Below, in pieces: positions 15,652 through 36,201 of a stretch of DNA of 64,000 nt (its first letter is position 1; the number at the start of each line of letters is the position of its first letter). Source of the DNA: a virus. Below the pieces are notes generated by a model, which was not told the DNA's origin, did not search any database, and saw only the letters and a program-made list of their open reading frames with translations. Where the stretch lies: IMG/VR virus record IMGVR_UViG_3300037504_000213, positions 1 through 64,000 of that record, one strand, 5' to 3'. The position numbers and the translations under genes were made by a program.

Positions 15652-16280
15652 AAATCAATGTCCAAATCCAAGTTTTCTGTCCAATCCTTTGCCAACATGC
15701 CTGAAAAATCCTTGGCCAATGACACAAAAACATTATCTTCAGCAATATCGTCTTTAAATGGATAGGCATAAACGCCTCTCTCTTTAATCTTTCTCCATAT
15801 CGGAAACGCTGGCAAGCTCCTTGCGTCAGCCCATAACATAATGGGCGTCCAAGGCAGGTTTGGTATTGGATCAGTCCCGAACTCAAGGTTGGCGGCTGCC
15901 AGAAACTCTTTCCCGCCAGAATTGTAATAATACAAGTCACTGTACACCGTCATGCGATTTCCATCAATAACGTACTGCCAGCTTTTGGAAAGCTCTCCAG
16001 TGTAGTAGTGATCTTCGTTGGCAATGAAGTCTTGTATCTCGCTGATTATTGCGTCTCCAACCTTTTCAAGGAAAGACTCTGCCAATTGCTCTGGAACCAT
16101 TGAGGCCACCGTGACAAGAAATTGCATCTCGTCAGTGGCCTCAATTGTCAGCAAATCTTCTTCTGATGGCAAATCTGGTCGAAGGCTTGCTATCATTTCC
16201 TTAATCTTAGATTTTAGGTCATTTACCCAATTCTCAAGCCTGTCCGCAAGGCCAGTTATTCCATTAAACAGTTTTTGCAA
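15648..16280 (-). CDS. HK97 gp10-like neck/tail-completion protein
   Basis: YTGELSKSW...LEFGT...YPF motifs. Confidence 0.6.
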   Translation of the reverse strand: MQKLFNGITGLADRLENWVNDLKSKIKEMIASLRPDLPSEEDLLTIEATDEMQFLVTVASMVPEQLAESFLEKVGDAIISEIQDFIANEDHYYTGELSKSWQYVIDGNRMTVYSDLYYYNSGGKEFLAAANLEFGTDPIPNLPWTPIMLWADARSLPAFPIWRKIKERGVYAYPFKDDIAEDNVFVSLAKDFSGMLAKDWTENLDLDIDL

Positions 16281-17625
16281 TCTCCCTTATAAGCTGCGCA
16301 ACGTTTTTTGCCCCACTGCCAGTGCCCTGATCCATTCTTCTCACAAAGTCTGCCATGTCTTTTCTGTAGTCGTATTCACTTGTAATGTGAATACGAATAG
16401 CTTCCGCAATATCATCGACATTCATATCTACATCCATTGGGTACTGCGTGCCGTAAACCTCATCTTTGTACTCATCAGCGTAGATGAGGGGAACGCCATC
16501 CAACACAGCTGCTTCTGTAGCAGAATTTGTGGCTGTGCACGATATGAGCAGCGACGCACTTGCAAGGACATTGCGGTATTCATCAAAGTCTGTAATAATA
16601 CGAAGATCTAGCGATTTGAATGGTTCAACGTGTTCTTGCACATGAGCCTCGCTTGGGTGTGGCTTGTACACCACAACAACTTGCTTATCTGTGCTTTCTG
16701 CAAACTTTTTTACCGCCTCGGCTATTGTAGACATCCATCTGGTCACAACGCCAAAGCCATGCTGGCCAGCGTGAGCCTGTTCTTCTGTGCCAATAACTGT
16801 GAGTACAATGGCGTCAAGGGGAAGATCAAGTACACGTCGTGCCATATCGCGTGATATGGCGTCTGCGGCTTGCCACATTTCATCAAAATGAGGGTTGCCA
16901 GTTACGATATACTGGCACTCATCGTTCCCGCGTTCTCTGTACCAATCAACATGATGCTGTCCTCCACAGCACAGGTGTGTAGCAAATGTGATGTCATGTA
17001 CGTCTGGCTCATTTGGGTCAAACTGCCTGTAGTGATTGGCATGAGGGATGTGAATGACATTTTCGCCAAGATGATTCAACATCATAGCCGTTGGTCTGGC
17101 ACGTGCTGTTACATCCTCCCATGTCAAGAATCCTACAAAGTTATCAATGCGTTGCGACACCCACCAAGCTCTGAACATATCTCTTGCAGCCTCAATGACA
17201 TTTCCCAAAAGAAGGGCATCTTCTGGCACATGATGTTTGGCAATTTTATCAAGAAACGTTCGGCTGGCGTCATGTATATATTTCCCAAGTTCGACCTTGG
17301 GAAGCTCCATGTTCACCACATGGTATCCACCTCTCGTCATGTATTTGCTAATATCATCGGATATTGGCAAAAAGAAAAAGTCATCCTTCAGGTGTGGAAG
17401 CACTGGCAGTACCGTATGCCTGCCACCAACGTGAACCATAATTAATGGCTTCTCTAGTGAAATTGTGTCTTGTGAGGGCGGTTTAGTGCGAATTTTTTCA
17501 TGCGCCCAAGGCAGCATTGCGTATTCCAACGCCACGTTGAGATCTACCCCGTCCACCATGCACCCCTGCCATTTAAAGGCTGTGTCGAGGGCTAAGTGGT
17601 GCAACTCACGATTCTTGTCTGTCAT
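16264..17625 (-). CDS. GT-B glycosyltransferase, sialyl/nonulosonyl-transferase-like
   Basis: VTGNPHFD, VVYKPHPSE (HP motif), SATEAAVLDGVP C-terminal GT-B signature. Confidence 0.6.
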   Translation of the reverse strand: MTDKNRELHHLALDTAFKWQGCMVDGVDLNVALEYAMLPWAHEKIRTKPPSQDTISLEKPLIMVHVGGRHTVLPVLPHLKDDFFFLPISDDISKYMTRGGYHVVNMELPKVELGKYIHDASRTFLDKIAKHHVPEDALLLGNVIEAARDMFRAWWVSQRIDNFVGFLTWEDVTARARPTAMMLNHLGENVIHIPHANHYRQFDPNEPDVHDITFATHLCCGGQHHVDWYRERGNDECQYIVTGNPHFDEMWQAADAISRDMARRVLDLPLDAIVLTVIGTEEQAHAGQHGFGVVTRWMSTIAEAVKKFAESTDKQVVVVYKPHPSEAHVQEHVEPFKSLDLRIITDFDEYRNVLASASLLISCTATNSATEAAVLDGVPLIYADEYKDEVYGTQYPMDVDMNVDDIAEAIRIHITSEYDYRKDMADFVRRMDQGTGSGAKNVAQLIREIAKTV

Positions 17626-19027
17626 TAAACATCTCCTGGTATGTGCTTGTAGCTGGTGCAGATGGAAGCTGGCGTGTTTGCTTAACTTTCATGGCATTTA
17701 CAGCAAACGCTATGTAACGATGTTGATTGGCAAATGCTGTAAGATTTTGCCTTGCATGCCTCATTGCGCCTAGCATTTTTTCCTTCTCCGCACTTAGGTT
17801 ATCAATAACCTGTCTTAACTTATTATACCATGCAGATTGTGTATTTTCAACTAAATGACCAAACGAGTTTGCCATTAGCTTGGGTGCTGCACTTGGGATG
17901 TAGCTGTCCTTATCCTGGTATGGCGCGCCGTTTGTTGCAATAAATGGTACACCAGCCATCATGTATTCCAGAACCTTAATCCACGATCTGTGCTCATCAT
18001 ACGAATAGCCAAAGTCATCTATTGGTTCAAGCTCAAGTGGCGCAATACCAACGTCAAACGTAGACACAACCAGTGGCCATGTGTAGCTGTTTACATAACC
18101 CTGGTGAATAATACGATCCTTTGGTACGTTGCCAAGTGGACCATCAATAATTCTTGTGTCGCCACCGCAAATCTTAATCATAACATTGTCTGTCTCTTCA
18201 ATTATTTGCTCAAGCGCTGGCACAATGTTGCTCAGATAAAAGCTGTCAAGGTGACCAGAGCTTCCACCCCATCCAATGATGATCTGGCGTTCGCTTCCAT
18301 CTCTTTCAGCTACATCAAATCGTCTTTGATCTGCCAAATGAGACACTGCATTAACGAATGATCTTGCTGGCATATTGCCCCACGATGGAAGATAGGCAGA
18401 TATGTTGTCCTGCATAAGCTGGTGCATCACATCTGCATCTATTGGCCTATTGTGCGGTTCGAACATAACGTCTGGCGCGCCGATTTGTTTTTGTCTAACG
18501 GTTCTATATGATCGCGGGTCTGCAAAGTTTGGAAGATGAAATACTGGCAGTGTTGCATCAAATCTCTTCCAAGATTCCAACAAAACCTTCGATGGTGAAA
18601 CGACACCGTCGCTGTGATTTACGACACCTTCTATTAGACCTTCAACAGTGTCGTACGGCAATCCAGATCTGCCCTTGACCCAGTACTGGTGCGCTGGGTT
18701 AATCGGCGGCAGGGCAGTGTAGTGATCATCCAAATCTACCAAGACAACCTGCCCGCGCAGCCTAAAACGATCCATTGCCTCCATAATGGATTTATCAAAG
18801 ACGTTTCTTTCCATAATGATAATATCGGCAGTTCCGATCAGCCTGTCAACTTCTGGGTCTCTCCAACGCGCTGCCGAGTTTAGGTGAATAACCTGAGCTT
18901 CAAGGATGTTGCCACCACCAGTTATGTTTATGCTGTCTGCTGGTGTTCTGGATCTCCACTGAGAGACATTGGCGTTTCTAATATCATCAGCATACAAAAA
19001 CATTAACTTCAACTTGTTCTCTTGCAT
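17606..19027 (-). CDS. Glycosyltransferase (GT4-like, phage type)
   Basis: WRSRTP, VDLDD, IGWGGSSGH, DVGIAPLE, SWIKVLEYMMAGVPFIAT. Confidence 0.8.
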   Translation of the reverse strand: MQENKLKLMFLYADDIRNANVSQWRSRTPADSINITGGGNILEAQVIHLNSAARWRDPEVDRLIGTADIIIMERNVFDKSIMEAMDRFRLRGQVVLVDLDDHYTALPPINPAHQYWVKGRSGLPYDTVEGLIEGVVNHSDGVVSPSKVLLESWKRFDATLPVFHLPNFADPRSYRTVRQKQIGAPDVMFEPHNRPIDADVMHQLMQDNISAYLPSWGNMPARSFVNAVSHLADQRRFDVAERDGSERQIIIGWGGSSGHLDSFYLSNIVPALEQIIEETDNVMIKICGGDTRIIDGPLGNVPKDRIIHQGYVNSYTWPLVVSTFDVGIAPLELEPIDDFGYSYDEHRSWIKVLEYMMAGVPFIATNGAPYQDKDSYIPSAAPKLMANSFGHLVENTQSAWYNKLRQVIDNLSAEKEKMLGAMRHARQNLTAFANQHRYIAFAVNAMKVKQTRQLPSAPATSTYQEMFNDRQES

Positions 19028-19057
19028 GTTTCCTCCGAATCAAATAAGTCCGACCTA

Positions 19058-19086
19058 ATTATAGATCGGACTTAATATTATGTCAA
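19058..19086 (-). promoter_or_regulatory. Perfect sigma70/sigmaA promoter for the glycosyltransferase pair
   Basis: TTGACA-17 nt-TATAAT; overlapped by inverted repeat TAAGTCCGA/TCGGACTTA. Confidence 0.8.
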
Positions 19087-19096
19087 TACCAATATA

Positions 19097-19603
19097 TTAA
19101 TTGTAGTCGAACTGATCTTTCCTAAACGAAGGCTGCACAAGATCTGAGTCGTCAAGAAGCTCTTCTTTGTCGGTTTTGCTTTGTCCAGTTATCTTGACAT
19201 GTGTGTTATAAGTAAGGCCAAGCTCACTGAGTTTTGAGCACTTTAACATATCCAGGTTTTCAAGATACTCTTTTCGTCTCAACTCCCCCCTGGTTCTTTC
19301 CTCTATGGAGATCGTTGCAGATATTTGCCTATCCTCTGCTCTCCATGCGGCATACAGCGCGCTTGTGATAGTCAGGAATGGATAAAATGCTATGTCACTT
19401 CCGACTGGAACCGTATATCCGCGTGTCGCTAAAACAGCATTTATTTGCTGATCTGCGACATTCAACCATGTGTTTACAACGGTCAGTGAAGGATTAGTGT
19501 CACTGGCAAAATTACTTGCGCCAGTGCCACCATAGTCGGCGTCCGTAAATATGACTCCTTCTCCGACTATGGCAGCAACATCAGAGGCGGATGCGTACGA
19601 CAT
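19097..19603 (-). CDS. Head-tail adaptor (Mu gp36-like)
   Basis: MSYASASDV start, INAVLATRGYTVP; directly after the capsid gene. Confidence 0.65.
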   Translation of the reverse strand: MSYASASDVAAIVGEGVIFTDADYGGTGASNFASDTNPSLTVVNTWLNVADQQINAVLATRGYTVPVGSDIAFYPFLTITSALYAAWRAEDRQISATISIEERTRGELRRKEYLENLDMLKCSKLSELGLTYNTHVKITGQSKTDKEELLDDSDLVQPSFRKDQFDYN

Positions 19604-19609
19604 TAAATA

Positions 19610-20596
19610 CTAAGCTAAGCAGTCCGATACGAGGAGTCCAGCCTCAGAGCTAACGACCACTTCGTCAACAAAGTGCTCGGCAACCATCTTGGTAAAGCCT
19701 TCCTCGTCATATCTGAATTCCTTGATTTGTCTTGGAACGCCGATATAGTCTGGAACCCATTCTACAATCGCACCAGCTGTTGGATTCATGAACGCTGGAG
19801 CGGCATCAACGTAACCCCACCAACAGTAATCGCCATCCCATATATCTGACATTGACGATTCCTCGCCCTGATCAGATGTGTCATAGATGGCTGTACCGAT
19901 AAGGATTCTTTCCATCTCCCACATAGCCTGAAGAAGCTGCACGGTGACCATAGCTGGTTGGCCGTTGGTCGCACCACCTTCTACACGAGCAAGCATATCT
20001 GGATGATTCCTGAGAGCCTGCCACGTCTTGGCACCCATAACAACAGTGTTTGGATACACGCCCATCTGTGTTCTGAACGTTTCTCTAATATCAAGGCCAC
20101 CCTTGATAACCTCAGCAGTGTCGTCATTAAACTGAGCGCCAAAGATGTTTGTCGCAGTATCAGAGTTGCTGCTCCAATTGCCACTCGTGTTAACCATGTC
20201 GGCAACACGCTTTTCCATGCTCAGGAACAGTGCGTCCATCGCCAATTCCATAGTTGTGGTTCGTATCAGCGGTCTAGCGGCATCATCTGCGATGTCAAGC
20301 GTGTGATCCAGCAATCTTTCACCGTGAGAATAGTTCTCACAATTATATGTCCCTGGATCCCCCATACCCCACGTCGATGTGGAGTACTTGGTGCCTGGAG
20401 CATGAGCAGTCGCCTTCAGTCTAAATCTGTCGTTCTTCTGTAACTTTCTGAACTGACCAGACTGCTGATCGGATCTGAACATTGGGAAAATGAGTTCGGC
20501 AATGTACTGCATGTTGGAGTAGCCCGTAGCCAGCTGGCTAAGGACACGGTTAATTGCATTGATTTGATTCTTACCTAAAGTTGGATTATAAGCCAT
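19610..20596 (-). CDS. Major capsid protein
   Basis: LSQLATGYSN..YIAELIFP, PNTVVMG..W.ALRNHP; GGAGG SD. Confidence 0.85.
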   Translation of the reverse strand: MAYNPTLGKNQINAINRVLSQLATGYSNMQYIAELIFPMFRSDQQSGQFRKLQKNDRFRLKATAHAPGTKYSTSTWGMGDPGTYNCENYSHGERLLDHTLDIADDAARPLIRTTTMELAMDALFLSMEKRVADMVNTSGNWSSNSDTATNIFGAQFNDDTAEVIKGGLDIRETFRTQMGVYPNTVVMGAKTWQALRNHPDMLARVEGGATNGQPAMVTVQLLQAMWEMERILIGTAIYDTSDQGEESSMSDIWDGDYCWWGYVDAAPAFMNPTAGAIVEWVPDYIGVPRQIKEFRYDEEGFTKMVAEHFVDEVVVSSEAGLLVSDCLA

Positions 20597-20607
20597 TATT
20601 GTTCCTC

Positions 20608-22136: not shown

Positions 22137-23466
22137 TTTGCATACCTCCAATTATTGCTTCTTTTTGCGCCTCTTTTTCTTCTATAGCCTTTTGGTATTC
22201 AGATTCATCAAATGGAAGGCTGGAGAGTTCGTGCATGAACTCACTGATTTTTTGTGTTGGCATGATATAGCCCTTGTCTGTCATAAGGCCAATAAACGCC
22301 CCCATCTTCTCAAGATCATAAGACATTGAGCTTGCTGGTTTAAACCTTGGTGCCTTGGTCAAGTCCATTCCGTTTATTCGCATCAGCCTTGGAATGGCAA
22401 ATCTGTTTAAGACATCAGATATTCTAGTGTTCATAACATCGATTGCTTGAAACAGAACATCAATAACGCGATCTGCCAATGCCTGAGTTCCAGTTGCGCT
22501 CATACCAAGAAAAATAAATTGTGCCAGTGCTGACATAGCCATTCTTTGCTCATAACGTTCAATAACGCCATGAAATGTGCCAGCCTGAAAACTGCCAGCG
22601 TTAAGCAACTCCAGCCTGATGCCCTTTCCTTCCTTGGCACCCTGGCCCATCTTTGCATATGGCAATACCACACCGCCACGCTCATCAATGCGAATGTCTT
22701 CAACTATTTGCTCTAGCTTTCCGCTTTCAATATCCTCTCTTGCCTCGTCTGAGGCATAGATCACTGGGAAGCCAGCACCCATGCGTTCTAGGGCTATTGC
22801 CTCTACTTCGCCAAGCCTTGTTGCATAATAATACGGAACATAGGCGTTCCTGAGCACAGATCTTCCTTCTGGCCTTGCCGAACCACCATAAGTATTGAAT
22901 AGCAGCATCTTTTCTATACTAACGTCAATTAGCTCACCACCCTCAGCACGTAGGTCTTGCCTGATCGACATTAAGCCGCCATGTGCATCTAGCCCCCAAG
23001 GTTCATCTACATAAAGGCTTTCTGCATCCCACGGTGCCCACTTACGCCACCCTATTTTCCCGTCATCGTATTTACTTGGCGTCGTGGCATCAAGCCCACG
23101 TCTGTATTTATATACAATTTCAAACACACTGAAACCATAATAAAGCATGGTGAATATCTGGCTTAGCGTATCAGACCATGAATGCGTCATGTCTTTCCAG
23201 CACTCGTCAACAAACTGAAATTCTTGTTCTCCGTCAGGTGCTGGCTCAAGTTTCCACTCAACAGACATAGCCATTAGCTGTATCGCCATGACGATAGCAC
23301 CAAGCACTGGATTGTTATCGCGCATCTCCCTATACGTCTTAAGGCCCTTTGCGCCCTTAAGGGACGGGAGGAAATCATCATACAGCTGGTTGTCATAGCG
23401 GTGCGGATCGTAATTGCCGTATTCTTGAAATTTACCGCGTCTTGGCCTGCCACGTAATCTAGGCAT
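22069..23466 (-). CDS. Portal protein (DUF935/Mu gp29-like)
   Basis: YREMRDN, YGFSVFEIVY, PEGRSVLRNAY, NRFAIPRL. Confidence 0.85.
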   Translation of the reverse strand: MPRLRGRPRRGKFQEYGNYDPHRYDNQLYDDFLPSLKGAKGLKTYREMRDNNPVLGAIVMAIQLMAMSVEWKLEPAPDGEQEFQFVDECWKDMTHSWSDTLSQIFTMLYYGFSVFEIVYKYRRGLDATTPSKYDDGKIGWRKWAPWDAESLYVDEPWGLDAHGGLMSIRQDLRAEGGELIDVSIEKMLLFNTYGGSARPEGRSVLRNAYVPYYYATRLGEVEAIALERMGAGFPVIYASDEAREDIESGKLEQIVEDIRIDERGGVVLPYAKMGQGAKEGKGIRLELLNAGSFQAGTFHGVIERYEQRMAMSALAQFIFLGMSATGTQALADRVIDVLFQAIDVMNTRISDVLNRFAIPRLMRINGMDLTKAPRFKPASSMSYDLEKMGAFIGLMTDKGYIMPTQKISEFMHELSSLPFDESEYQKAIEEKEAQKEAIIGGMQNDEDGLDSEPEGESEPDTETEE

Positions 23467-27166: not shown

Positions 27167-28322
27167 CTACTATCACACTTCCAAGCCTATCGCCGTGGCT
27201 TTTAACACCATCAAACTTATCGCCAACCTTCTTATATTTGACCTCCATAACGCCAACCGCGCTATTCGTTGACGGCATTGGCATTTCATCGTAACATACG
27301 GATGGCTCTGGGCCACGTACAATAGTTCCGTTTTTAGGAAAGCCGTAGCGTTGCGAAAACCACTTGCCATTCCATGACACATTACCAGAAACATCGTGAT
27401 CCATGTCAAGGGCGTGCATTATCGCGTGCCCCACAATGTCCATTCCTGGAAACACGGCGTCAAATATATCTGACGCCAAGTAGCCGCCACTTAGCCTTGG
27501 TGCTATCTCAAGCACATAGATGTTTTCTCCGTCATATATGGTGTCAAGTTTTAATGCGGCTCCCTCTTCTACGCCGAAGACGTCAGCAACCTCATCAAAA
27601 GCCAATTTGTTTATAAGGTAAAGATCGCTGTTGATAACAGGACCAATACAGCCGTCCTCTACTGGATGTGTGCCAAAGGTTTTGTCGTAATTTCTCATTG
27701 CGACACCAATTAGCGGAGAACCAACGACACCCTCCACACTAAACTGCTTTCCTTTTATTTCCTCGGAGACAATAATGCTTCTAAGTATCTGTACATTTTT
27801 TGCACCCCTGCTTTTATTAGCTGTATATATATAAAAATTACCATGCTTCTTGGGCGGGGACAAGAAACTAACATAACCAGCCTTTTGCAATCCAGACAGG
27901 GTGCTATAAAGCCCCATTTTGTCAACACTCAGTATCGCAAGTTCTTCTGGAACAGCGGCTTTGCAAGACAACGATAGTGCAACTTGACATTGTACATCAG
28001 CGGCATCGGTTGCCGCGCACATTACACCATCAACCTCCAACCCGTCAATCAGTTGCTTGTAATACAATTCTCTGATAATTTCGTCTGCGTCATAGCATGA
28101 AGCCTTTACAAAAACATCAGCCTCTTGGACACAAAACGCATTTGGGTCCATGTCAATTGCCACTATGCGACAGCCAAGCTCCCGTGCACGATTATAGATG
28201 CTGGCAGCCTCTATGCCAGCACCCAACATCGCAATTGTCATCCCATTAGCAGCACCACGATCAACCTTCATCTGTGCCATCCTCACTCGCATCTCTGGGC
28301 GTACGGTCAGATTGTTCCTCAA
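27087..28322 (-). CDS. ATP-grasp ligase
   Basis: LGAGIE, D.DPNA, EEIKGKQFSVEG, LEIAPRLSGG, DRLGSVI. Confidence 0.8.
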   Translation of the reverse strand: MRNNLTVRPEMRVRMAQMKVDRGAANGMTIAMLGAGIEAASIYNRARELGCRIVAIDMDPNAFCVQEADVFVKASCYDADEIIRELYYKQLIDGLEVDGVMCAATDAADVQCQVALSLSCKAAVPEELAILSVDKMGLYSTLSGLQKAGYVSFLSPPKKHGNFYIYTANKSRGAKNVQILRSIIVSEEIKGKQFSVEGVVGSPLIGVAMRNYDKTFGTHPVEDGCIGPVINSDLYLINKLAFDEVADVFGVEEGAALKLDTIYDGENIYVLEIAPRLSGGYLASDIFDAVFPGMDIVGHAIMHALDMDHDVSGNVSWNGKWFSQRYGFPKNGTIVRGPEPSVCYDEMPMPSTNSAVGVMEVKYKKVGDKFDGVKSHGDRLGSVIVVANNVIEADMAARAGAEYLEGTYEFE

Positions 28323-28939
28323 TTCTTAATATCTTAACGACACCAGACCGCCTACAATATCTGGTAGCCTCTGGCTTTCCATCATCATTTTTAGAAATAT
28401 CGTATGTCATTGAACCCATTACTTCATGGGCGTGTTGCTTTAGCCACACCTCTGGATCTGTAGCAACAATACCATCTTGGTATACCTCATTCTTTACCTC
28501 ACCACCCAACGATGGGTCGATTTCGATATGTCTAGCAATATACATTTAATACTCCTTCAGTATTTCATTTACTTTCGCTACTGCAAAATCAATATCTCTC
28601 CATGCAAGTGTTGTAATGTTAGACAGCCGTCTAATTAACTGATCGTCAATCACTACATTGCTCACAAGGACACTTCTCTTCTGTTGTCTGCGTCTGTCCA
28701 CCAGCTTTACCTCTGTCAACATGCGTACTCCGTGCACAATATTCTCGTATATTGACAGTCTTATCATCTTTACTCCCAAGCGTATTCATGCCAACGTTAT
28801 TTATGGCTTCGCACACAGCATCCCATACAGACATTGGATCTATGAACGTGTTTGCACTAATACTGTGCGTTCCACCCCTAGTGCCCATTGCGAATTCACA
28901 GACAACACCTTCTTCATCGACCTGTATAAAAATTTCCAT

Positions 28940-30190
28940 TTATCCTTTATCCTTTATCCAAAGTTGAATTGCATCTAACGGCAGTTTGCTTTGCATCGCA
29001 TAATCCATCTTTACATAGTGTTCTCCTCTCGTAACAGCCCAAACCATGTCAACTGGAAGGCCGTGATCCCCAACGAAGCCTACAAACTGCTGTGGTGTTT
29101 GCCAATTTTGCTTGTGTGATGGCATAACTGGCACACCCCACGGAAATTGCTTCTCCAAAGGGACCTCAAGAATTAAAAGCCCACTTTCGCCTAGCATCGT
29201 CCATAGGTGCCATAGCGCAACCTCTGGCTCATCAAGATGTTCAAGCGTGTGGCACGACACAATGAGATCAAAGCCACCATGTGACTTTTTGTTGATAAGT
29301 GCATCTGGCAACGTGTTCCTTTCCATATCCCAATACACAAGGTGATTGCCCTCACTTCTACAATGAGAAAAATCAATATCAGCACCAACAACTTCACGCG
29401 CATATTTGTTCATTGCATTTGTGCCACTTCCCGTGCCACAGGCTGCATCAAGTGCAAGATCAAACCAGTCAACGTCATAGTGCTCAGACGCCAGCTTCAA
29501 GAACTTATTATATTTACCGTAATTTCCAAGGTCGTGCCTCTCAAACCAGCTTGGCTTATTTCTAATCTCCTGTACTGACATTATATCGCCGTATTCCCTT
29601 GGATAGCACGGCGCTGATTTGAACTCATCATCATGATGCAGTATATAGTTCCACGGCCTCATTTTCACGGAGCTTTCGTGTTCATGTGACGCAAGTTTCT
29701 GAACCGCCTCGCGTGAAAGTACGTCAGCACCAGCGTTCACGTTCCAGCTATGTGGAAGATGAACGTAGTCTAGGTCTTTATCAACAAGGAGTTTTATCTG
29801 CTGAGCAATAACTTCCTGAGACGAGTAAAACCTTGGAAAAATAGTTCTGACAATAACATCGTAATTGCATGATTCTGCGAAAACCCTCATTTGACCAACA
29901 AGATCTTTGTTTGGTAAAAAGTGGCGGCTTGCTATATCCCATATATTGCCGAGATAATCGAAGATGCTATTTTCTGGACCAAAGTCACTGCAAATCGTCA
30001 TACCCCAAGAATTGTCAAATGCTCCTGGTGCCCAGTTTGACTTGTCAAGAACATCAAGCCAACTCATGTCATCAACAATGTCTGTATGGTGGGCCTGAAT
30101 AAAAACACCTATCTTCTTACCCTTGTACGAACGCATTGACCTTCTCCTCAATTTTGTCTGCAATCCTGCACGCAGCGTCACTCCTGACAA
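28940..30190 (-). CDS. SpsF-like domain fused to a class I SAM methyltransferase
   Basis: YDVIVRT..P, LDYV, GADVLS in the N-half; LDAACGTGSG, FDLIVSCHTLEHL in the C-half. Confidence 0.7.
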   Translation of the reverse strand: MSGVTLRAGLQTKLRRRSMRSYKGKKIGVFIQAHHTDIVDDMSWLDVLDKSNWAPGAFDNSWGMTICSDFGPENSIFDYLGNIWDIASRHFLPNKDLVGQMRVFAESCNYDVIVRTIFPRFYSSQEVIAQQIKLLVDKDLDYVHLPHSWNVNAGADVLSREAVQKLASHEHESSVKMRPWNYILHHDDEFKSAPCYPREYGDIMSVQEIRNKPSWFERHDLGNYGKYNKFLKLASEHYDVDWFDLALDAACGTGSGTNAMNKYAREVVGADIDFSHCRSEGNHLVYWDMERNTLPDALINKKSHGGFDLIVSCHTLEHLDEPEVALWHLWTMLGESGLLILEVPLEKQFPWGVPVMPSHKQNWQTPQQFVGFVGDHGLPVDMVWAVTRGEHYVKMDYAMQSKLPLDAIQLWIKDKG

Positions 30191-30899
30191 CCCTTTCTGG
30201 TCTATTGTACATTAATCTGTCAATTACGTCGGCCAAGTCTTCCCATCGCATATCTTCGTTTACAAAAAACACCTCTTGTGCAACACCACGCTCTAACATT
30301 AACATGGCATCATCCATTCTTTTCTGATCCACCGCCAGCAACACAACTGGCTTTCTCATGGCGTTGGCCTCATAGGCAATGCGCCCTGGCGCAGTCAAAA
30401 CGACTGCACTGTGACCAACGACATTATACCACGCTTGATGCGGAATCTCAACGACATTTTTAGGTATCTCGTAATCCTGTTGCACAAGATTACCCCTCCC
30501 AAGCATAAACTTCATGGTAGGCCAATTCGTTGCAAGTTCGGCAAGAACGCTGTTACCAAGATCATCAACATCAGAGGAACCAAACGCAACTGCCACATAA
30601 CCATCAGACCTTGTGTTCTGAAACCACTTCTTATCAACCACAACGTCCTGCACGCTATCAACAAGCTCGCTATAATATATCGTTAGCGGAAGAAAGTATC
30701 TTCCGTCGGCCTTCCACCAGTCATACACGACAGCATCTGTATCGTGATCTGGGGTAAAGACCTGATCCACGTTTAGCCTGTAGAGCCATGCGTCATGGCC
30801 CCTATTTCTCATCTCTTGAACGATAGGTTCACACCTTGCCGCATGACCGCCACCACAGCAAGTGTCATATGAAACAACAAAATCCACTTTCATAACCAA
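30117..30899 (-). CDS. PseG/SpsG-like UDP-sugar hydrolase
   Basis: GGGHAARC, AFGSSD, APGRIAYEA...P. Confidence 0.65.
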   Translation of the reverse strand: MVMKVDFVVSYDTCCGGGHAARCEPIVQEMRNRGHDAWLYRLNVDQVFTPDHDTDAVVYDWWKADGRYFLPLTIYYSELVDSVQDVVVDKKWFQNTRSDGYVAVAFGSSDVDDLGNSVLAELATNWPTMKFMLGRGNLVQQDYEIPKNVVEIPHQAWYNVVGHSAVVLTAPGRIAYEANAMRKPVVLLAVDQKRMDDAMLMLERGVAQEVFFVNEDMRWEDLADVIDRLMYNRPERVVRSDAACRIADKIEEKVNAFVQG

Positions 30900-31531
30900 T
30901 ATCCTTCTCTATATGGATTTAGGGCCGAAACATCATCTCTTTTTGTAGGACCAATAAATGGCATGTCCATTATATCAAAAAAATTTATCTCTGTAAATAG
31001 AGCTTTATGAGGACTTCTCGACACGACATCATTAGTGGCCCTTTCCCTTATGACCAGTTCTCTGACGCCCCAATAATTTTTTACATTTCTTGGCCCAACA
31101 CGCCAGTCGTCGTTCAAGCAGCCGCCGTACATTCTATTAGATATAAGTGTCCTCCAAAATTCATTGGAAGACGACAGTCTAAGCCTTGCGCCTCCCCACC
31201 CAACCTGAGACGGGGGAGTAACAATCTTAACCTTAACGCCATCAATTTTTGTTCTTACTATCTGCCCCTTTCTCATTACCTTTCGCTTGTAGTCAAGTTC
31301 AAATTCAGCCTCTATGCCAGCGTCTTGCACAGCACCCCTTATATGTGCCCAGGTGTAAGAGGTAAAAGGCTTGAGGTGCCCGTAAGGAAGTCCAAGTGCG
31401 GTAACAGCCATAACGTTTTCATGTAACATATAGACATCACCGCACGGAACCAACTTGGCGTAAACGCTCTTAAACAACACTTTGACTTCTTCAAATATCC
31501 TTTTGCCCTCTTCAAGAGTTACGCATTTCAT
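30890..31531 (-). CDS. Degenerate PolX-family protein
   Basis: Layout and WG...SS..F and TE..FF....P.I.P..R motifs of minimal PolX; catalytic GSxRR/DxD absent. Confidence 0.45.
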   Translation of the reverse strand: MKCVTLEEGKRIFEEVKVLFKSVYAKLVPCGDVYMLHENVMAVTALGLPYGHLKPFTSYTWAHIRGAVQDAGIEAEFELDYKRKVMRKGQIVRTKIDGVKVKIVTPPSQVGWGGARLRLSSSNEFWRTLISNRMYGGCLNDDWRVGPRNVKNYWGVRELVIRERATNDVVSRSPHKALFTEINFFDIMDMPFIGPTKRDDVSALNPYREGYWL

Positions 31532-32678
31532 TTAACACCTCTACTGCTTCTTTCGCCAACGATATGGCATCTTCCTTGGTGTGTATAAGTGTTGCAAAGT
31601 TTGGACGCCACACTAGATGCCCGCGCCGTAGCAATTCCATACTAAACTTTTTCATAACACTGTCTGGCACATCAAACCATGTTCGCGTTGGGTTGTTTCC
31701 AACAATGCGATAAGAAATATAGTTTTCGTTCGCAAGGCCATTGAACGTTGACATAAGTGTATCACCAACACTGTAAATGTGATCGTAAAGCTCTGGGTGA
31801 TCTCTATAATACTTCAAGTTTAACTGTGCCGCCCGTAAACCACGCGGGTGTCCAAAATATGTCCTACTGAAATGAACATGTTTCCCGTGAAAGGGTGAGA
31901 GCATTAACATTACATCTTTGTTGCCAACAACAGCACTAATGGGTTCGTCACCGCCAAGCGCCTTACCATAACAGGCCAAATCTGGTATGACACCATAATG
32001 CTCAGTCGCACCGCCAATCCCGTAACGGAACCCAGTCACCACCTCGTCAAAGATTAACAATGCTCCGAGCTTGTCGCACACTTCTCTGCATTGTGTCAAA
32101 AATTCTTTGTATTCCTTATATGGCATTTTGCCATCGTCTTCAACAATAATAGCGGCTACTGAACCAGCCATTTTTGTATTTCTTAGCCACTGCAAAGAGT
32201 GTTTATCCAGCTTCAGTATATTGTTGTTTTTATTGAACTGCGCTTGAGTTCCATACTTTGAGTCTGCCCAGAGAAAAGATGAGCCATGATAGCCATAGGA
32301 ATAAACATTCTCTCTGTTGGTATAAGCTATGGCCAGCTTCACAGCCATTTCTGTTGCATCACCTCCACTTAGGGCAAAACGCGCCATGTGATCCTGCGTG
32401 TTTGCCCAAGGCAACACCTCTATCAAAAGCCTTGCGACGCGACTTTCTAGCGGTGAACGAAACGAACCGCATGGATTGGCCTCTACGCCACCCCAGTAGT
32501 TATATCCAAGCAATGGGCCGTATTGACCCATAACCCAACTTGTACACGGATATTCAGAACCGTCACTTGCAATCACAGTTTCGTGTACACCTTCACAAAT
32601 TAACGTCTCGCCATCTAATGGGCGATACTTTAGCGTCCTGCTGTCTAACGACGCACCGCCTGGAACGAGATTATCCAT
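31512..32678 (-). CDS. Class III PLP aminotransferase (GSA-like)
   Basis: SGGDAT, YHG, LIFDEVVTGFR, PDLACYGKALG. Confidence 0.85.
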   Translation of the reverse strand: MDNLVPGGASLDSRTLKYRPLDGETLICEGVHETVIASDGSEYPCTSWVMGQYGPLLGYNYWGGVEANPCGSFRSPLESRVARLLIEVLPWANTQDHMARFALSGGDATEMAVKLAIAYTNRENVYSYGYHGSSFLWADSKYGTQAQFNKNNNILKLDKHSLQWLRNTKMAGSVAAIIVEDDGKMPYKEYKEFLTQCREVCDKLGALLIFDEVVTGFRYGIGGATEHYGVIPDLACYGKALGGDEPISAVVGNKDVMLMLSPFHGKHVHFSRTYFGHPRGLRAAQLNLKYYRDHPELYDHIYSVGDTLMSTFNGLANENYISYRIVGNNPTRTWFDVPDSVMKKFSMELLRRGHLVWRPNFATLIHTKEDAISLAKEAVEVLNEMRNS

Positions 32679-32987
32679 CTGTTACCTCCACATACCCCAA
32701 ACTTTCTATAGCGTTGGCAATCGCAAGATCAACAGCACTGTCCAAAACAACTTCTAATTTGGCAACATAATCATAGTCCATTGATGATGCAGCCATAATT
32801 GATATGCAACCATCACATGTCTTGACAAAAACCCGATACCGCTTTTCGTCAGGGCAAAATGGCCGTGGGTCACCGCCTATGATATAACTCTCACCTATTG
32901 GCTTAAAGCTACCAGATGTCCATTCGCCAAAAGTAACCTTCTGGGCTAACCAATCAGTAGAATCACAGCGGATAAGACCATCAGCTT

Positions 32988-34103
32988 TTATTTCTTTTCC
33001 CATGTCTTAACTTTCTCCAATGTTGTTTTCACATCAAGTTTGTTATGCGCGTCTGTCGCATAATTTCTATTCCACATGATAATGCCATTATCGAACATGT
33101 GCTTGGCAAAACTCTTTCGCTCATCCCTGGGCAGCCTTATTGAAAAATTAGTGTCTTGCCCAACTGTTCCAAAGCCAAGGTCCTGAAGTCCTTCCTTTAG
33201 GCTGTGTCCAATCTTGGATATTTTTTCAAATACGCTATCAAACCTTGTGACATTTTCAAGAAAGGCTATTGCTATAGATACTGCAAATGGGTCCCCAGAA
33301 AACGTTGATGAAGAATACACATCATCAGCAAGGTGTTGCATAAAATCGATTTGTCCACCCAACACGGAAACAGGTGAACCCCACGCTTTCCCATATACAA
33401 CCATAGATGGGTTTATATCAATACCAACTTTTCCGTAATACTCAACTGCACCACGCAAGCCAAGTCTGAACCCAGTTACTACTTCGTCAAGAATAATTGG
33501 TATGCTAGATTTTGTGCATAGGTCAATGCCAAGCCTCAACCAATCCAGGAAATCATCAGTTCCATCATCCATCGACAGATCCACAATCCAACACGCGGCC
33601 ATACTGTCCAGACGACGCTTCAGCTCCTCAGAGTCGCGATATGGCACATAGCGAGTGCCCTCAGCCGTTCCATAAGTAATACCACCATCTCTGGGTGGCC
33701 GTATAAAGCTACTGCTCATTCCGTGATAACCAGATGAGACAACCCTGTTCCTGCCCGTTTCTGCACGAGCAATGCGTACAGCAGCCTCACAGGCGTTACC
33801 ACCAGTTTGACTTAGCCAAACAGCTTCAACATGTGGCATAATGTCACAAACCATGCCAGCAAGCCTGTTTTCAAGTTTATGCCCAGACGACCCCAGTGAG
33901 CCGTTGCCCATAAAGATTGGTGTCCCTGGTATGTTCCTGGGATGATGAAAACCAAGCACGGGACCATAATGGCCCATCTGCCATGACTTGTACTTATTCC
34001 CATCTTCGCCAACCTCTACAGCACCCCAATAGCCATATGTTTGTTGGCCTATAGCATTGTACAAGGACGAACGCGCTAAACACGATGATTTATTAATGAG
34101 CAT
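32988..34103 (-). CDS. Class III PLP aminotransferase (second paralog)
   Basis: TGGNACEAAVRIAR, GYHG, ILDEVVTGFR, YGKAWG, SSTFSG. Confidence 0.85.
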   Translation of the reverse strand: MLINKSSCLARSSLYNAIGQQTYGYWGAVEVGEDGNKYKSWQMGHYGPVLGFHHPRNIPGTPIFMGNGSLGSSGHKLENRLAGMVCDIMPHVEAVWLSQTGGNACEAAVRIARAETGRNRVVSSGYHGMSSSFIRPPRDGGITYGTAEGTRYVPYRDSEELKRRLDSMAACWIVDLSMDDGTDDFLDWLRLGIDLCTKSSIPIILDEVVTGFRLGLRGAVEYYGKVGIDINPSMVVYGKAWGSPVSVLGGQIDFMQHLADDVYSSSTFSGDPFAVSIAIAFLENVTRFDSVFEKISKIGHSLKEGLQDLGFGTVGQDTNFSIRLPRDERKSFAKHMFDNGIIMWNRNYATDAHNKLDVKTTLEKVKTWEKK

Positions 34104-34286: not shown

Positions 34287-35216
34287 TTAAAGCACGCCCC
34301 TAACAGCACGAAGTGGTCGCTTTTCGTCAAGCGGATCAGCACGCCAATAAACCTCGTCTCTTTCACATTCTTGCGGAAACTTATAGCCATCGCCAAGGCG
34401 TTCGTCTCTCTGACTTTCAAATTCATTGTCTGGCGTCATATTAATAATGTTTCTAGCGTCTCTTGAATACCCATAGGGGTCATCCAAAAAATAAGAATGC
34501 CCATTTTCATTCCCAATACTATCTAAATCGAAATGAACCTCTATAACCTCGGCACCAAGATTCACGGCCTGTATTACAACGTTGACGTTTGCAGTATGGT
34601 CGCTATAGCCAATTGCAACTCCAGGAAACGCTCTTTTTAGTGCCTCAATGGCAAGAAGATTAACTTGATCCTCTGGCGTTGTATAGGCAGACACACAATG
34701 CAATATTGACAACTTGCCATCAGGTAAATCAAGTGCCCCACCCAAAGACAGGGAGGACATAATCTCTGGCATTGTGGCGGCCCCAGTAGACACAATGATG
34801 CCCTTTACCCCAGAGTTTTCAGACGACACAATCTTAGTGGCTTTTCGCATCATTTTATAGTTCAACAGTTCATAGCTGCCAAACTTGATGTAATCAATGC
34901 TTTGTCCAGCAGACCACTTCATTTGACTTATTCTATCAAGATTATTTGTATTCAGTGTAGTAACAATGTAGTCCATCCCAAGCTCATGTGTGTATTCGCA
35001 AAGCATTGGATGCCAACTGTTTGGCGTAAATGGATAATACGGATTAGACTTGTACTTCTCAACTGCATATCTTTCACAGTAGACGTCTTCCCACTTAGAA
35101 AGCATTTGGGTTTTCACTGCGTCAAACCCAACATCCTTGACAGCCTCAATTAGCTCAAGCGCCCTGTGAATGTCACCATTGTGATTACTGCATAACTCAG
35201 CGATATAGTATGTCAT
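34287..35216 (-). CDS. neuB: Nonulosonic acid synthase (NeuB/PseI family), lacking the C-terminal AFP domain
   Basis: IAELCSNHNGD, DAVKTQ, KFGSYE, STG, LHCVSAY, GYSDHT, IEVHF. Confidence 0.9.
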   Translation of the reverse strand: MTYYIAELCSNHNGDIHRALELIEAVKDVGFDAVKTQMLSKWEDVYCERYAVEKYKSNPYYPFTPNSWHPMLCEYTHELGMDYIVTTLNTNNLDRISQMKWSAGQSIDYIKFGSYELLNYKMMRKATKIVSSENSGVKGIIVSTGAATMPEIMSSLSLGGALDLPDGKLSILHCVSAYTTPEDQVNLLAIEALKRAFPGVAIGYSDHTANVNVVIQAVNLGAEVIEVHFDLDSIGNENGHSYFLDDPYGYSRDARNIINMTPDNEFESQRDERLGDGYKFPQECERDEVYWRADPLDEKRPLRAVRGVL

Positions 35217-35220
35217 TGGC

Positions 35221-36201
35221 CTAGCCTTCCCTCCCGAACATTGCGATATGATCATTATACACCTCATCAACCATTTTTTCAAGTGGAATGCCAAACATCG
35301 CGGCGTCTTCAGAAGAACGCATGGCCACATGTGGTAAATCTGTTTCCTCGCTCCCACATTTATAGATAGCGATTATCTCGTTTACCAACTCAAGCACCTT
35401 GACCTCCCTTTGGTTAATCAGGCTTTCATGTTGTTTTTCCTCTTGGCCAAGGCCAATCCATCTCACACCACCTAACACATTCAGTGTTGCCAAGTCACCA
35501 GAAACCATTTTGAATAACACCTCTGCAAGCGCAGTTATAGAAGAAGCATTCATACAACGAACATACAGGCCACTGTCCATCTCAAGGACATTGTCTATAA
35601 AAGTTACTGCTTCTCTGAACGTCATCCAATACCTAGTTACTATAGGTAGGGGGCCAACTATCGTTAGAAGTTGACTTGCATTAATTTGATCAATCCATTT
35701 CCAGAAAACACTTCCTCTGCTACCAAGGACATTCCCATACCTTATAACTTGCGAGCACAAGCCTTTATTTGCCAATACCAGTCGCTCTGCAACAGCCTTT
35801 TGCATTCCATATATATTTACTGGTTCCACAGCCTTGTCGCTACTAATTTGCAGGAACTTCCCAATATCAGCGGCAACAGCAGCATAGCTAGCATTAGCAG
35901 CGCCAGTTGCATTTACAGAATGCGAATAATATGGATTGCGGTTACATGCACCAACAGATTTAACTGCGGCTGCATTTACTACAGCATCAATATCGTGCTC
36001 CTTGAATATTCTTGTCAGTTCATCCGTGTCCCGAATATCACAAGCATGAAATTTGGGTAATTTGGGATAATTTTGTGATAAAGACTGAATTTCGTCAAAC
36101 TTATGCCAGTCCCTTGCACACCCAGCCACAATCTCATGCCTGGAAAACATCATCATTGCTCTGCCCAAGGTACCAGTGATGCCAGTAACAAAAATTCTCA
36201 T
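35221..36201 (-). CDS. pseB: UDP-GlcNAc 4,6-dehydratase (PseB/FlaA1/CapD family)
   Basis: TGITGTLG, NAAAVK, SSDKAVEPVNIYGMQK, RYGNVLGSRGSV, EKQHE. Confidence 0.85.
   Translation of the reverse strand: MRIFVTGITGTLGRAMMMFSRHEIVAGCARDWHKFDEIQSLSQNYPKLPKFHACDIRDTDELTRIFKEHDIDAVVNAAAVKSVGACNRNPYYSHSVNATGAANASYAAVAADIGKFLQISSDKAVEPVNIYGMQKAVAERLVLANKGLCSQVIRYGNVLGSRGSVFWKWIDQINASQLLTIVGPLPIVTRYWMTFREAVTFIDNVLEMDSGLYVRCMNASSITALAEVLFKMVSGDLATLNVLGGVRWIGLGQEEKQHESLINQREVKVLELVNEIIAIYKCGSEETDLPHVAMRSSEDAAMFGIPLEKMVDEVYNDHIAMFGREG

Follow-up and report, generated by a model that had tools for sequence, protein, structure and literature searches.

A tidal-flat phage carries a candidate CMP-nonulosonate pathway linked to a glycosyltransferase in its head-tail gene block

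Does a phage that carries nonulosonic acid genes, together with glycosyltransferases amid its head and tail genes, make its own activated sugar, and to what would it attach it? The question is raised by a stretch of 64,000 nucleotides (the window) that is part of a 76-kb IMG/VR contig (IMGVR_UViG_3300037504_000213; completeness about 65%) of an uncultured tidal-flat phage. Dozens of related phages share the sugar-pathway genes and the transferases. A preliminary description had proposed that the phage encodes a CMP-nonulosonate route coupled to structural-module transferases that modify the virion, the host surface or DNA. All the genes it named were recovered at their assigned positions on the minus strand, and a route linked to a transferase of the structural module is supported by gene content and by the co-occurrence of one transferase, GT_HP, with NeuB. 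We see an even chance that the phage makes a tailored CMP-nonulosonate which GT_HP transfers late in the infection; the acceptor, located in the cytoplasm, would most likely be a virion protein or several of them.

The sugar genes form a tightly packed minus-strand run (36201-26051) that carries on into the large terminase (23459..25144; phrog_2, 1.3e-23) directly downstream; from PseB to TerL the genes overlap or abut each other, which suggests late expression. The first gene (35221..36201) encodes a PseB/FnlA-like UDP-GlcNAc 4,6-dehydratase of the SDR type (Polysacc_synt_2, 2.4e-48; TIGR03589 PseB, 2e-37, under the cut-off of that model) with orthologues in 10 related clusters. The second encodes a NeuB-family nonulosonate synthase (34287..35357; PF03102, 7.8e-36), whose real start is probably near residue 46. 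It matches the NeuB_NnaB (5e-40) and PseI (1e-35) models, reaching the cut-off of neither, and is roughly equidistant from SpsE, NeuB and PseI in the PDB.

Two class-III (HemL-like) aminotransferases follow, copy a (32988..34103; PF00202, 3e-17; HemL-type models, 5e-38) and copy b (31512..32678; PF00202, 1.6e-26; family profile, 2e-77), the latter having GSAM as its top solved match (8e-28). Both retain the PLP-binding Asp and Lys (in copy a the Asp of DEVVTGFR and the Lys of GK), and it is copy b, not copy a, that is nearest to the single aminotransferase orthologue of related phages. A 110-aa ORF between them (32671..33003), with no family match and no assigned function, overlaps both neighbours. 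The next gene (30890..31531) encodes a 213-aa protein that has no Pfam match and appears to adopt a Pol-beta-like nucleotidyltransferase fold, its ESM Atlas neighbours being viral DNA_pol_B_thumb/palm clusters (score 0.96, TM 0.69).

The PseG-like UDP-sugar hydrolase (30117..30899) is a short form of 260 aa. By itself it matches TIGR03590 weakly (E 0.002), while the profile of the 335-aa family of its relatives matches it at 1.4e-9; aligned with these relatives and used as a profile, it has the Campylobacter jejuni PseG 3HBM as its top solved match (1e-8), and it retains the G-x-G-H-x-x-R motif. The adjacent product (28940..30190) had been read as a fusion of SpsF and a methyltransferase. The second half of this reading holds, the C-terminal half being a SAM methyltransferase (Methyltransf_23/11/12, 1e-9) that is matched by the stand-alone methyltransferase family of the relatives (1.3e-9). 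The SpsF half has weak support: the N-terminal region is divergent, matches the CMP-synthetase family of these phages over part of its length (E 2.9e-5), and yielded no homologue in a word search. Two small ORFs of 97 and 94 aa (28261..28939) have no matches. They precede an ATP-grasp amide ligase (27087..28322; LAL_C2, 2e-5; ATP-grasp_3, 4e-3; family profile, 1e-48; orthologues in 10 related clusters), a candidate for the N-acylation that PseH would otherwise perform. The last sugar gene (26051..27166) encodes a CMP-nonulosonate synthetase of the CTP_transf_3 family, which by itself matches PF02348 weakly (1.3e-3) and KdsB models at 5e-5, and scores 5e-57 against orthologues that pass the Pfam cut-off. 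Its C-terminal tail is a helix-turn-helix with a sigma-70 region-4-like match (E 0.002).

This gene content is compatible with a pseudaminic-type route from UDP-GlcNAc. The PseB-like enzyme would catalyse the 4,6-dehydration, the HemL-like class-III aminotransferase the transamination usually performed by a DegT-type PseC, and the ATP-grasp ligase the N-acylation that is otherwise the task of the GNAT enzyme PseH; the acyl group may be of amino-acid type and may then be methylated by the methyltransferase. The PseG-like hydrolase would remove UDP, NeuB would condense the product with PEP and the CTP_transf_3 enzyme would activate it with CTP. The operon shares with the CMP-pseudaminic acid pathway of Campylobacter and Helicobacter (PseB-C-H-G-I-F) a PseB-like dehydratase, a PseG-like hydrolase, a NeuB/PseI-type synthase and a CTP_transf_3 synthetase, but has a HemL-like class-III enzyme, in two copies, instead of the DegT aminotransferase, lacks the GNAT, and has an ATP-grasp ligase and a methyltransferase added. 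The absence of a DegT-type PseC and a GNAT PseH noted earlier was borne out across the whole 76-kb record, which yielded neither a DegT nor a GNAT nor a hexapeptide acetyltransferase. The proposal that class-III aminotransferases replace PseC gains support from the relatives, where the class-III and DegT enzymes are mutually exclusive. The ATP-grasp ligase and the methyltransferase are conserved additions to the pathway, and relatives have, besides these, a Gfo/Idh/MocA oxidoreductase and one more SDR.

The two glycosyltransferases lie, as had been described, between an adaptor-like neck gene and the tail-tube gene. On the minus strand, the major capsid protein gene (19610..20596; phrog_1005, 9e-55) is followed by the gene of a 168-aa conserved head/neck protein (19097..19603), a putative adaptor with a faint match to Mu Gp36 (E 0.09) and, in the alignment of relatives, a conserved S/T-S-P-T motif. 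In about 40 related loci this neck gene is directly upstream of GT1, at a distance of at most about 1.6 kb and usually of a few hundred bases. Within the window a 69-bp gap precedes GT1; a sigma-70-type promoter (TTGACA-17-TATAAT; 19045..19086, minus strand) matches the consensus at 12/12 positions and is overlapped by a hairpin with a 13-bp stem, classed as terminator-like. Downstream of GT_HP are neck genes (210 and 153 aa) and the tail-tube gene (together 14682..16280, minus strand; tail tube, 14682-15131, Phage_tail_2, 5e-4), and the 210-aa gene is conserved immediately after GT_HP in relatives. The order capsid, neck gene, GT1, GT_HP, neck gene, tail tube is kept in about 40 related viral contigs.

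GT1 (17606..19027, minus strand) is a soluble GT-B glycosyltransferase with a GT4-like C-terminal half (Glyco_trans_1_4, 7e-5; phrog_7162, 5e-10) and 871 relatives in the representative library. It is also found in phages without NeuB, which implies that its role is not confined to the nonulosonate pathway. GT1 may first place an ordinary sugar on a protein that GT_HP then caps; alternatively, the two enzymes may act at different sites.

GT_HP (16264..17625, minus strand), a soluble TagF/TarL-like GT-B protein, is our candidate CMP-nonulosonate transferase. Its K-P-H-P motif occupies residues 321-324 (bases 16654-16665); K-x-H-P is invariant in the family, as are H195, D208, H210 and H323, and an acidic pair, E170-D171, some 150 residues upstream of the HP motif, is nearly so. 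The structural model (pLDDT 82) has a predicted GT-B fold. Among solved structures it matches TarL with CDP-ribitol best (Z 20.9), followed by TagF (Z 19.9); in both enzymes CMP is the leaving group. The nearest solved relatives transfer polyol phosphates and not sugars, which counts against a nonulosonate role. Glyphos_transf was found in 22/32 family members, a profile match links GT_HP to the TagF-like Cps3D (8e-5), and no solved sialyltransferase is among the fold matches listed. In sialyltransferases the His of the HP motif binds both the phosphate of CMP and the carboxylate of the sugar (PMC2169525), and the TagB-like Pse/Leg transferases that serve protein O-glycosylation in Tannerella have this His as well (PMC5420450). 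Fold, motif and co-occurrence together suggest that GT_HP may bind a CMP-sugar via its His-Pro motif and transfer the nonulosonate. Of the earlier label "sialyltransferase-like", the shared motif remains; sequence and fold are TagF/TarL/2-epimerase-like, and with 13.6 bits against a cut-off of 200 in the curated nonulosonate-transferase model NF046086 the protein is not a member of the Tannerella transferase family.

The link between transferases and pathway was examined by co-occurrence and applies to GT_HP, not to GT1. NeuB is present in 14/38 GT_HP-positive and 0/12 GT_HP-negative records; among contigs of at least 40 kb the figures are 11/12 with GT_HP and 0/9 with GT1 only (Fisher p 3e-5, ignoring phylogeny), and among those of at least 60 kb 8/8 and 0/6. 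The GT_HP-positive contigs are one phage clade, and the co-occurrence is confounded by relatedness. The sugar cluster nevertheless changes its site from genome to genome (in some it lies upstream, on either the same or the opposite strand, and in others 16-55 kb downstream), which argues that the link is not simple synteny.

Characterized systems resemble the phage genes in part. The Tannerella forsythia enzymes Tanf_01245 and TFUB4_00887 (NF046086) put a tailored Pse/Leg at the end of an oligosaccharide that other glycosyltransferases have started on a protein (PMC5420450). They too are TagB/TagF-like GT-B proteins with an HP motif, and their logic is that proposed for GT1 and GT_HP; by contrast, GT_HP is virus-encoded within a neck gene block, with no membrane or periplasmic export context. 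TagF, TarL and the TagF-like capsule polymerases (PF04464; 3L7I, 8VA1, 8QOY) have in common with GT_HP the GT-B fold and a His at the HP-equivalent position, but TagF and TarL are membrane-associated polymerases that move glycerol or ribitol phosphate from CDP-polyols, whereas the phage is devoid of CDP-polyol genes and encodes a complete CMP-nonulosonate route, which co-occurs with GT_HP. With the bacterial GT-B sialyl- and polysialyltransferases (GT38, GT52, GT80) GT_HP shares the HP motif and a comparable spacing of the acidic pair to that of D/E-D/E-G, but no detectable sequence similarity, and its acidic pair is followed by Val instead of Gly. In mycobacteriophages, subunits of the capsid and of the tail tube are glycosylated by phage transferases encoded in the structural operon, a placement like that seen here (Freeman et al. 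2023, Cell Host Microbe, as cited in PMC12619734 and PMC11256854). Those systems involve no nonulosonic acid, and their transferases are unrelated to ours, since neither GT1 nor GT_HP matches any of 50,697 GenBank phage records. To our knowledge, glycosylating mycobacteriophages use host nucleotide sugars and encode no sugar pathway.

GT_HP might instead be a genuine transferase of the TagF type, moving polyol phosphate or something else that is not a nonulosonate. The CMP-nonulosonate would then serve GT1 or a transferase of the host, and the co-occurrence would reflect only the shared ancestry of one clade. The TagF, TarL and Cps3D matches and the Glyphos_transf domain speak for this, as do capsid and neck homologues common to all GT_HP-positive contigs; the His-x-x-His and D-x-H invariants of the N-terminal half would likewise resemble the catalytic-histidine region of TagF. 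We nonetheless consider it improbable. There is neither a TagD-like nor an IspD/TarI-like cytidylyltransferase (the sole NTP_transf_3 trace is within the CMP-synthetase gene), no glycerol- or ribitol-phosphate genes were seen, and GT1, found without NeuB, is not dedicated to this sugar; no Maf/MptE-like gene that could supply an alternative nonulosonate transferase was found in the 76-kb record or in 14 NeuB-positive relatives, and GT_HP accompanies NeuB wherever the cluster lies. Transfer of the sugar to phage DNA, as hypermodified bases, is extremely improbable. Some phage GT-B enzymes do glycosylate 5-hydroxymethylpyrimidines (Pyle et al. 2024, as cited in PMC12619734), but the record, about 65% of a genome and to that extent leaving room for this target, contains no ThyA-family hydroxymethylase; its nucleotide genes are an ordinary dCTP deaminase and ThyX, and the glycosyltransferases are in the neck module, not beside replication genes. 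DNA, one of the targets first suggested, has thus become unlikely.

A host acceptor is harder to dismiss, though we still hold it to be rather unlikely: the same enzymes would alter a glycoconjugate or glycoprotein of the host (for example the receptor, a flagellin, pilin or S-layer protein, or a lipid-linked glycan that host machinery exports later). Phage sugar genes are often interpreted as host-surface modifiers, as in the LPS clusters of cyanophages. The perfect promoter with its overlapping hairpin gives the GT pair a moron-like look and would fit its being expressed, like a moron, separately from the head genes; two relatives have been classified as proviruses, the whole layout is present on a Steroidobacteraceae MAG contig, and in bacteria TagF-like enzymes with the HP motif, encoded close to nonulosonate genes, have surface glycans as their targets (PMC5420450). 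Against this, the 76-kb record has no integrase, no terminator comes after the GT pair, whose second member, GT_HP, overlaps the next neck gene at its end, and the site of the pair within the neck block is kept in about 40 loci. GT1 and GT_HP have no TM segments, and no flippase, polymerase or ligase genes (Wzx/Wzy/WaaL-like ORFs) or lipid-carrier machinery were found; expression of the pathway together with the terminase would come too late for surface remodelling. Should the host be modified after all, this could block superinfection or keep progeny from sticking to debris.

Virion proteins are the acceptors that we favour. The glycosyltransferases are soluble and lie within the neck block and the pathway genes run into packaging genes, from which the capsid, adaptor or tail-tube protein would probably be the acceptor, an assignment made from position only. 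Large Ser/Thr-rich ORFs, present between capsid and neck genes in many relatives, are absent from the window, which therefore holds no obvious glycan-carrier protein. Our literature search found no paper that describes sugar-coating of virions by such a phage system. With a gene set for an activated sialic-acid-like sugar and two soluble glycosyltransferases between its head and tail genes, this phage probably sugar-coats its own particle.

The minus strand, transcribed from high to low coordinates, carries nearly all genes of the window between ~1 kb and 54 kb. On it, the sugar operon opens with a PseB/FnlA-like 4,6-dehydratase (35221-36201; Polysacc_synt_2, 2.4e-48), followed by a NeuB-family synthase (34287-35357), the first copy of a HemL-like class-III aminotransferase (32988-34103), a 110-aa ORF (32671-33003), the second aminotransferase copy (31512-32678), a protein of 213 aa whose fold resembles that of Pol-beta-like nucleotidyltransferases (palm/thumb; 30890-31531), a short PseG-like hydrolase (30117-30899), a 416-aa protein with a SAM methyltransferase in its C-terminal half (28940-30190), two small ORFs (28261-28939), an ATP-grasp ligase with an L-amino-acid-ligase-type C-terminal domain (27087-28322), a CTP_transf_3-type cytidylyltransferase with a helix-turn-helix tail (26051-27166) and again two small ORFs (25116-26115). 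The large terminase (23459-25144) comes next, and from PseB to the terminase consecutive ORFs mostly overlap or abut, the exceptions being gaps of 183 and 100 bases, in agreement with the preliminary description of one unit running into the terminase. The Mu-type portal (22069-23466), protease/scaffold (21045-22151), major capsid protein (19610-20596), a conserved 168-aa neck protein (19097-19603), the glycosyltransferases GT1 (17606-19027, GT4-like in its C-terminal half) and GT_HP (16264-17625), two more genes of the neck, the tail-tube gene (14682-15131) and the tape-measure gene complete the series. The gene content first described was confirmed. An HNH endonuclease gene (36271-36822, plus strand) separates SSB from PseB, directly upstream of the operon, and may mark a module boundary.

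The pathway enzymes were identified with differing precision. The PseB-like protein scores 128.7 bits against TIGR03589 (cut-off 407.75), FnlA being nearly as good a match, while NeuB-family membership of the synthase is clear (7.8e-36), with SpsE, NeuB and PseI equally similar. The PseG-like protein keeps the G-x-G-H-x-x-R motif; the window sequence alone matches weakly, and it is a profile built with its relatives that identifies it as a MurG-like UDP-sugar hydrolase, the best solved match being PseG of C. jejuni (PDB code: 3HBM; 1e-8, full length). Similarly, the cytidylyltransferase alone reaches 19 bits against PF02348 (cut-off 22.6), and is recognised as a PseF-type CMP-sugar synthetase (CTP_transf_3) through its phage orthologue family (5e-57), the members of which pass the PF02348 cut-off and are of similar length (median 344 aa). 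Its C-terminal sigma-70 region-4-like helix-turn-helix tail, with an acidic end, is encoded just upstream of the packaging genes. Both class-III aminotransferase copies keep the PLP-binding Asp and Lys. The 416-aa protein had been described as an SpsF-methyltransferase fusion; the methyltransferase is supported by a match (1.3e-9) to a stand-alone methyltransferase conserved in the relatives, and the SpsF-like N-terminal half amounts to a partial match (E 2.9e-5).

In the CMP-pseudaminic acid pathway (PseBCHGIF), to which the operon was compared, PseG and PseF have counterparts here and PseC and PseH do not. PseC-type DegT aminotransferases (PF01041) are absent from the whole 76-kb record, which carries the two class-III aminotransferases instead, and neither PseH-type GNAT (PF00583, PF13302) nor hexapeptide (PF00132) acetyltransferases were found in the record, the contig being ~65% complete; the lack of a visible DegT-type PseC or GNAT PseH reported earlier thus extends to the full record. 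The occurrence of both a PseB-like and a PseG-like enzyme speaks for a Pse-type route, and it is very probable that the phage makes a CMP-nonulosonate.

Clustering the ORFs of 15 related sugar clusters revealed a conserved order of PseB, NeuB, class-III aminotransferase, Gfo/Idh/MocA oxidoreductase, methyltransferase, PseG-like hydrolase, SDR, ATP-grasp and cytidylyltransferase. The window retains PseB, NeuB, the aminotransferase (duplicated), the methyltransferase (fused), the PseG-like hydrolase (shortened), the ATP-grasp and the cytidylyltransferase, lacks the Gfo/Idh/MocA oxidoreductase and the SDR of its relatives, and has in addition the Pol-beta-like protein and small ORFs. The Pol-beta-like protein, which belongs to mostly viral clusters and does not occur in the sugar clusters of the relatives, may be a tailoring nucleotidyltransferase or an unrelated insert. 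DegT was found only in two relatives (G039 and G048), both devoid of the class-III aminotransferase, PseB and ATP-grasp. Such a complementary distribution lends support to the role of the class-III enzyme as putative sugar aminotransferase of the pathway. Since the ATP-grasp ligase is conserved and no acetyltransferase is present in the record, it is the likeliest enzyme to N-acylate the sugar, and the methyltransferase is likely a tailoring step. The consistent exchange of PseC and PseH for a class-III aminotransferase and an ATP-grasp enzyme suggests a new branch of nonulosonate chemistry. In two relatives NeuB contains one in-frame TGA each (G001:C1:35187-35798 and G005:C1:24958-25563), which could stem from gene inactivation, an error in sequencing or recoding.

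GT1 has 871 relatives in the representative library, and its profile matched none of the solved structures. Scanning IMG/VR with the GT1 alignment recovered 67 loci, in ~40 of which the order capsid, 168-aa neck protein, GT1, GT_HP, 210-aa neck protein and tail tube is found. A sizeable clade of uncultured phages thus has the GT pair as a conserved insertion within its neck block. Full-length GT1 homologues with 25-30% identity are also extant in many Anaerolineae/Chloroflexota genomes (L106-L132; e.g. Thermanaerothrix daxensis and T. solaris), with no GT_HP, capsid or neck-gene homologue detected nearby.

Word-index searches with GT_HP returned only GT_HP itself. Thirty-one orthologues were recovered from related viral loci, and the resulting alignment of 32 sequences raised the pLDDT of the AlphaFold model to 82, compared to 37 from the single sequence; the model confidently adopts a GT-B fold. 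Among solved structures, it matches best TarL with CDP-ribitol (Z 20.9), TagF (Z 19.9) and NeuC (Z 19.6); UDP-GlcNAc 2-epimerases match equally well (Z 19-20.6), and generic GT-B enzymes score a little lower (Z 15-19). The GT_HP profile matches the TagF-like capsule polymerase Cps3D (8e-5) and TagF (5e-4), Pfam Glyphos_transf (PF04464) is detected in 22/32 members at E<=0.01 (best 8e-9; the window protein alone scores 19.1 bits, cut-off 22.1), and ESM Atlas neighbours are labelled Glyphos_transf, Capsule_synth and Epimerase_2. Together, the fold, profile and Pfam matches place GT_HP, as far as sequence and predicted structure can assign it, in the TagF/KpsS/2-epimerase branch of GT-B, the characterised transferases of which have CMP as leaving group.

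The KPHP motif, noted in the preliminary description, is present at residues 321-324. All 32 sequences share H195, D208, H210 and H323, the last being the histidine of HP; P324 is at least 90% conserved, and (H/W)-E-D-V at 169-172 is nearly invariant. The histidine of this motif binds both the phosphate of CMP and the carboxylate of the sugar in bacterial sialyltransferases (PMC2169525), and the HP motif is also found in the TagB-like Pse/Leg transferases that act in protein O-glycosylation of Tannerella (PMC5420450). GT_HP has the HP motif in common with the bacterial GT-B sialyltransferases (GT38/52/80). Its E-D-V, ~150 residues before HP and with no Gly, is a possible counterpart of the sialyltransferase D/E-D/E-G motif, and no solved sialyltransferase is among the listed sequence or fold matches. 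Membership in the Tannerella-type nonulosonate transferase family NF046086 was ruled out, GT_HP scoring 13.6 bits and its relatives at most 25 bits against a cut-off of 200. TagF and TarL are the closest structural relatives of GT_HP, and the Tannerella TagB-like Pse/Leg pair, which acts on a protein-bound glycan, is its closest functional analogue. No TagD- or TarI-type gene was found in the record, which argues against a CDP-glycerol or CDP-ribitol donor. We consider it likely, with a good deal less assurance than the synthesis of the sugar itself, that GT_HP transfers the nonulosonate of the phage.

The full records behind 50 of the loci were searched for NeuB, CTP_transf_3 and GT_HP. NeuB was detected in 14/38 GT_HP-positive and 0/12 GT_HP-negative records, the GT_HP-positive records devoid of NeuB being mostly short fragments. 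Among records of at least 40 kb, the proportions are 11/12 versus 0/9 (Fisher p 3.4e-5, uncorrected for relatedness, which matters since GT_HP-positive records share capsid and neck homologues); they are 8/8 versus 0/6 at 60 kb or more, and 2/2 versus 0/4 in genomes at least 90% complete. The lone exception is a 43-kb fragment that ends 11 kb beyond the GTs on the downstream side, which is where the cluster is located in several relatives. The position of the sugar cluster varies, being upstream on either strand (on the same one in the window) or 16-55 kb downstream, hence the association of NeuB with GT_HP is not just inherited adjacency. GT1, however, is also found without NeuB, in larger and more distant phages, which suggests that GT1 is a general phage transferase and GT_HP the pathway-linked one. 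The original proposal of a nonulosonate pathway coupled to both GTs is accordingly supported in part, for GT_HP and not for GT1. In a 57-kb phage without GT_HP and NeuB (L064:8994-12213), a GT1 homologue has as neighbours another GT1-type transferase and a gene resembling that of GDP-mannose-4,6-dehydratase, suggesting that modular GT-plus-sugar-pathway cassettes for other sugars exist. No Maf-type transferase (PF01973, MptE-like/DUF115) was found in the record or in the 14 NeuB-positive relatives; on its gene content, the present case appears to be a TagF-like, Maf-free phage nonulosonate module with clade-wide co-occurrence.

The parent IMG/VR viral contig is 76,273 bp long and 65% complete according to CheckV, and its DNA is present in one sequencing run, a tidal-flat metagenome, which is the probable source; no RNA run was listed as containing it. 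GT1, GT_HP and the DNA of their region had no match among 50,697 GenBank phage records, only 3 of which matched the window NeuB. With a capsid protein at most 29% identical to GenBank phage capsids and a 20-kb region without DNA match, the phage has no close cultured relative. The 91.8-kb contig JBGAHO010000011.1 of a Steroidobacteraceae MAG (L105, L154-L158) has the same overall layout (PseB, NeuB, class-III aminotransferase, CMP-synthetase, TerL, portal, capsid, neck gene, GT1, GT_HP), with 36% identity to the window in TerL, 40% in the portal and 37% in GT1; it may be a phage contig that was binned with the MAG, or a prophage, in which case a gammaproteobacterial host would be hinted at. 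Elsewhere in the window, a Ro60/TROVE protein with a vWA domain (46429-48003, minus strand; PF25045, 5e-59) and, in the early-gene region, an aldo/keto reductase (62679-63593, minus strand; PF00248, 1e-22) are encoded. The tail gene block has, distally, a gene for a leucine-rich-repeat protein (2091-3290, minus strand; LRR_1, 1e-27), which is a possible receptor-binding protein. A 5'-open ORF at the contig edge (4-726, plus strand) with four hydrophobic segments is the sole multi-span membrane candidate in the record, and is followed by two small holin-like ORFs with hydrophobic segments (927-1662, minus strand).

Whether virion proteins are the acceptor of the nonulosonate is, in our judgement, evenly balanced. 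A virion acceptor is favoured by the conserved neck-block position of the GT pair, the overlap of the GT_HP end with the next neck gene, the continuation of the sugar operon into the terminase gene and the lack of an integrase in the 76-kb record. It is also favoured by the membrane predictions, no membrane segments being predicted in the GTs or pathway enzymes, and by the lack of any flippase, polymerase or ligase-like ORF. Moreover, the capsid and neck genes of many relatives are separated by long orphan ORFs of 430-1029 aa that are rich in Ser+Thr (20-28%; L016:4995-7604, L105:4448-7537, L017:4153-6834, L007:4956-7016 and others). Their products could carry glycan or be head fibres, and a domain search with them gave nothing informative except one ConA-like lectin. 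That the window has no homologue of these ORFs is either against a virion acceptor or neutral to it.

The GT pair could instead be a moron, expressed independently and serving to modify the host. Within the 69-bp gap between the neck gene and GT1, thus directly before the GT pair, a perfect sigma-70 promoter (19045-19086, minus strand; TTGACA-17-TATAAT, 12/12 consensus) is overlapped by a hairpin with a 13-bp stem and a T-rich tail. The same element could be a terminator after the head genes combined with a promoter for the GTs and the tail genes. Two relatives are flagged as proviruses, which, like the layout shared with the Steroidobacteraceae contig, is either against a virion acceptor or neutral to it. 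DNA, a third conceivable target, is unlikely, as a ThyA-type hydroxymethylase is absent from the record, in which the nucleotide genes, dCTP deaminase and ThyX, are ordinary.

To our knowledge, phage self-glycosylation has been shown so far only for mycobacteriophages, which use host sugars. Our literature search found no paper on a nonulosonate pathway that is encoded by a phage and connected with its virion genes. Mycobacteriophage virion glycosylation, reportedly by GTs inside the structural operon, is the closest viral precedent, and the placement of the GTs recurs here in the ~40 loci with a GT pair in the neck block. We propose that the 4-amino group would be introduced by the HemL-like class-III aminotransferase and acylated by the ATP-grasp ligase, probably with an amino-acid-type group, with methylation following, and that a TagF-derived family of CMP-nonulosonate transferases would attach the sugar with a GT4-like partner encoded in the neck gene block. 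The complete scheme, in which a large clade of environmental, uncultured tailed phages coats its own virions with a self-made new nonulosonic acid by these steps, is tentative, its chances being somewhat short of even.

Nonulosonic-acid transferases are known for very few systems, and GT_HP is a compact, soluble and directly assayable candidate; the two GTs and the pathway form a module small enough for reconstitution in E. coli. If true, the scheme would be the first case of a phage particle undergoing virus-encoded "sialylation", and would provide an orphan reaction with a new enzyme family. With virions as the target, phage self-glycosylation would extend to environmental phages that supply a sialic-acid-like sugar themselves, and a virion nonulosonate could then influence adsorption, stability, aggregation, grazing or recognition.
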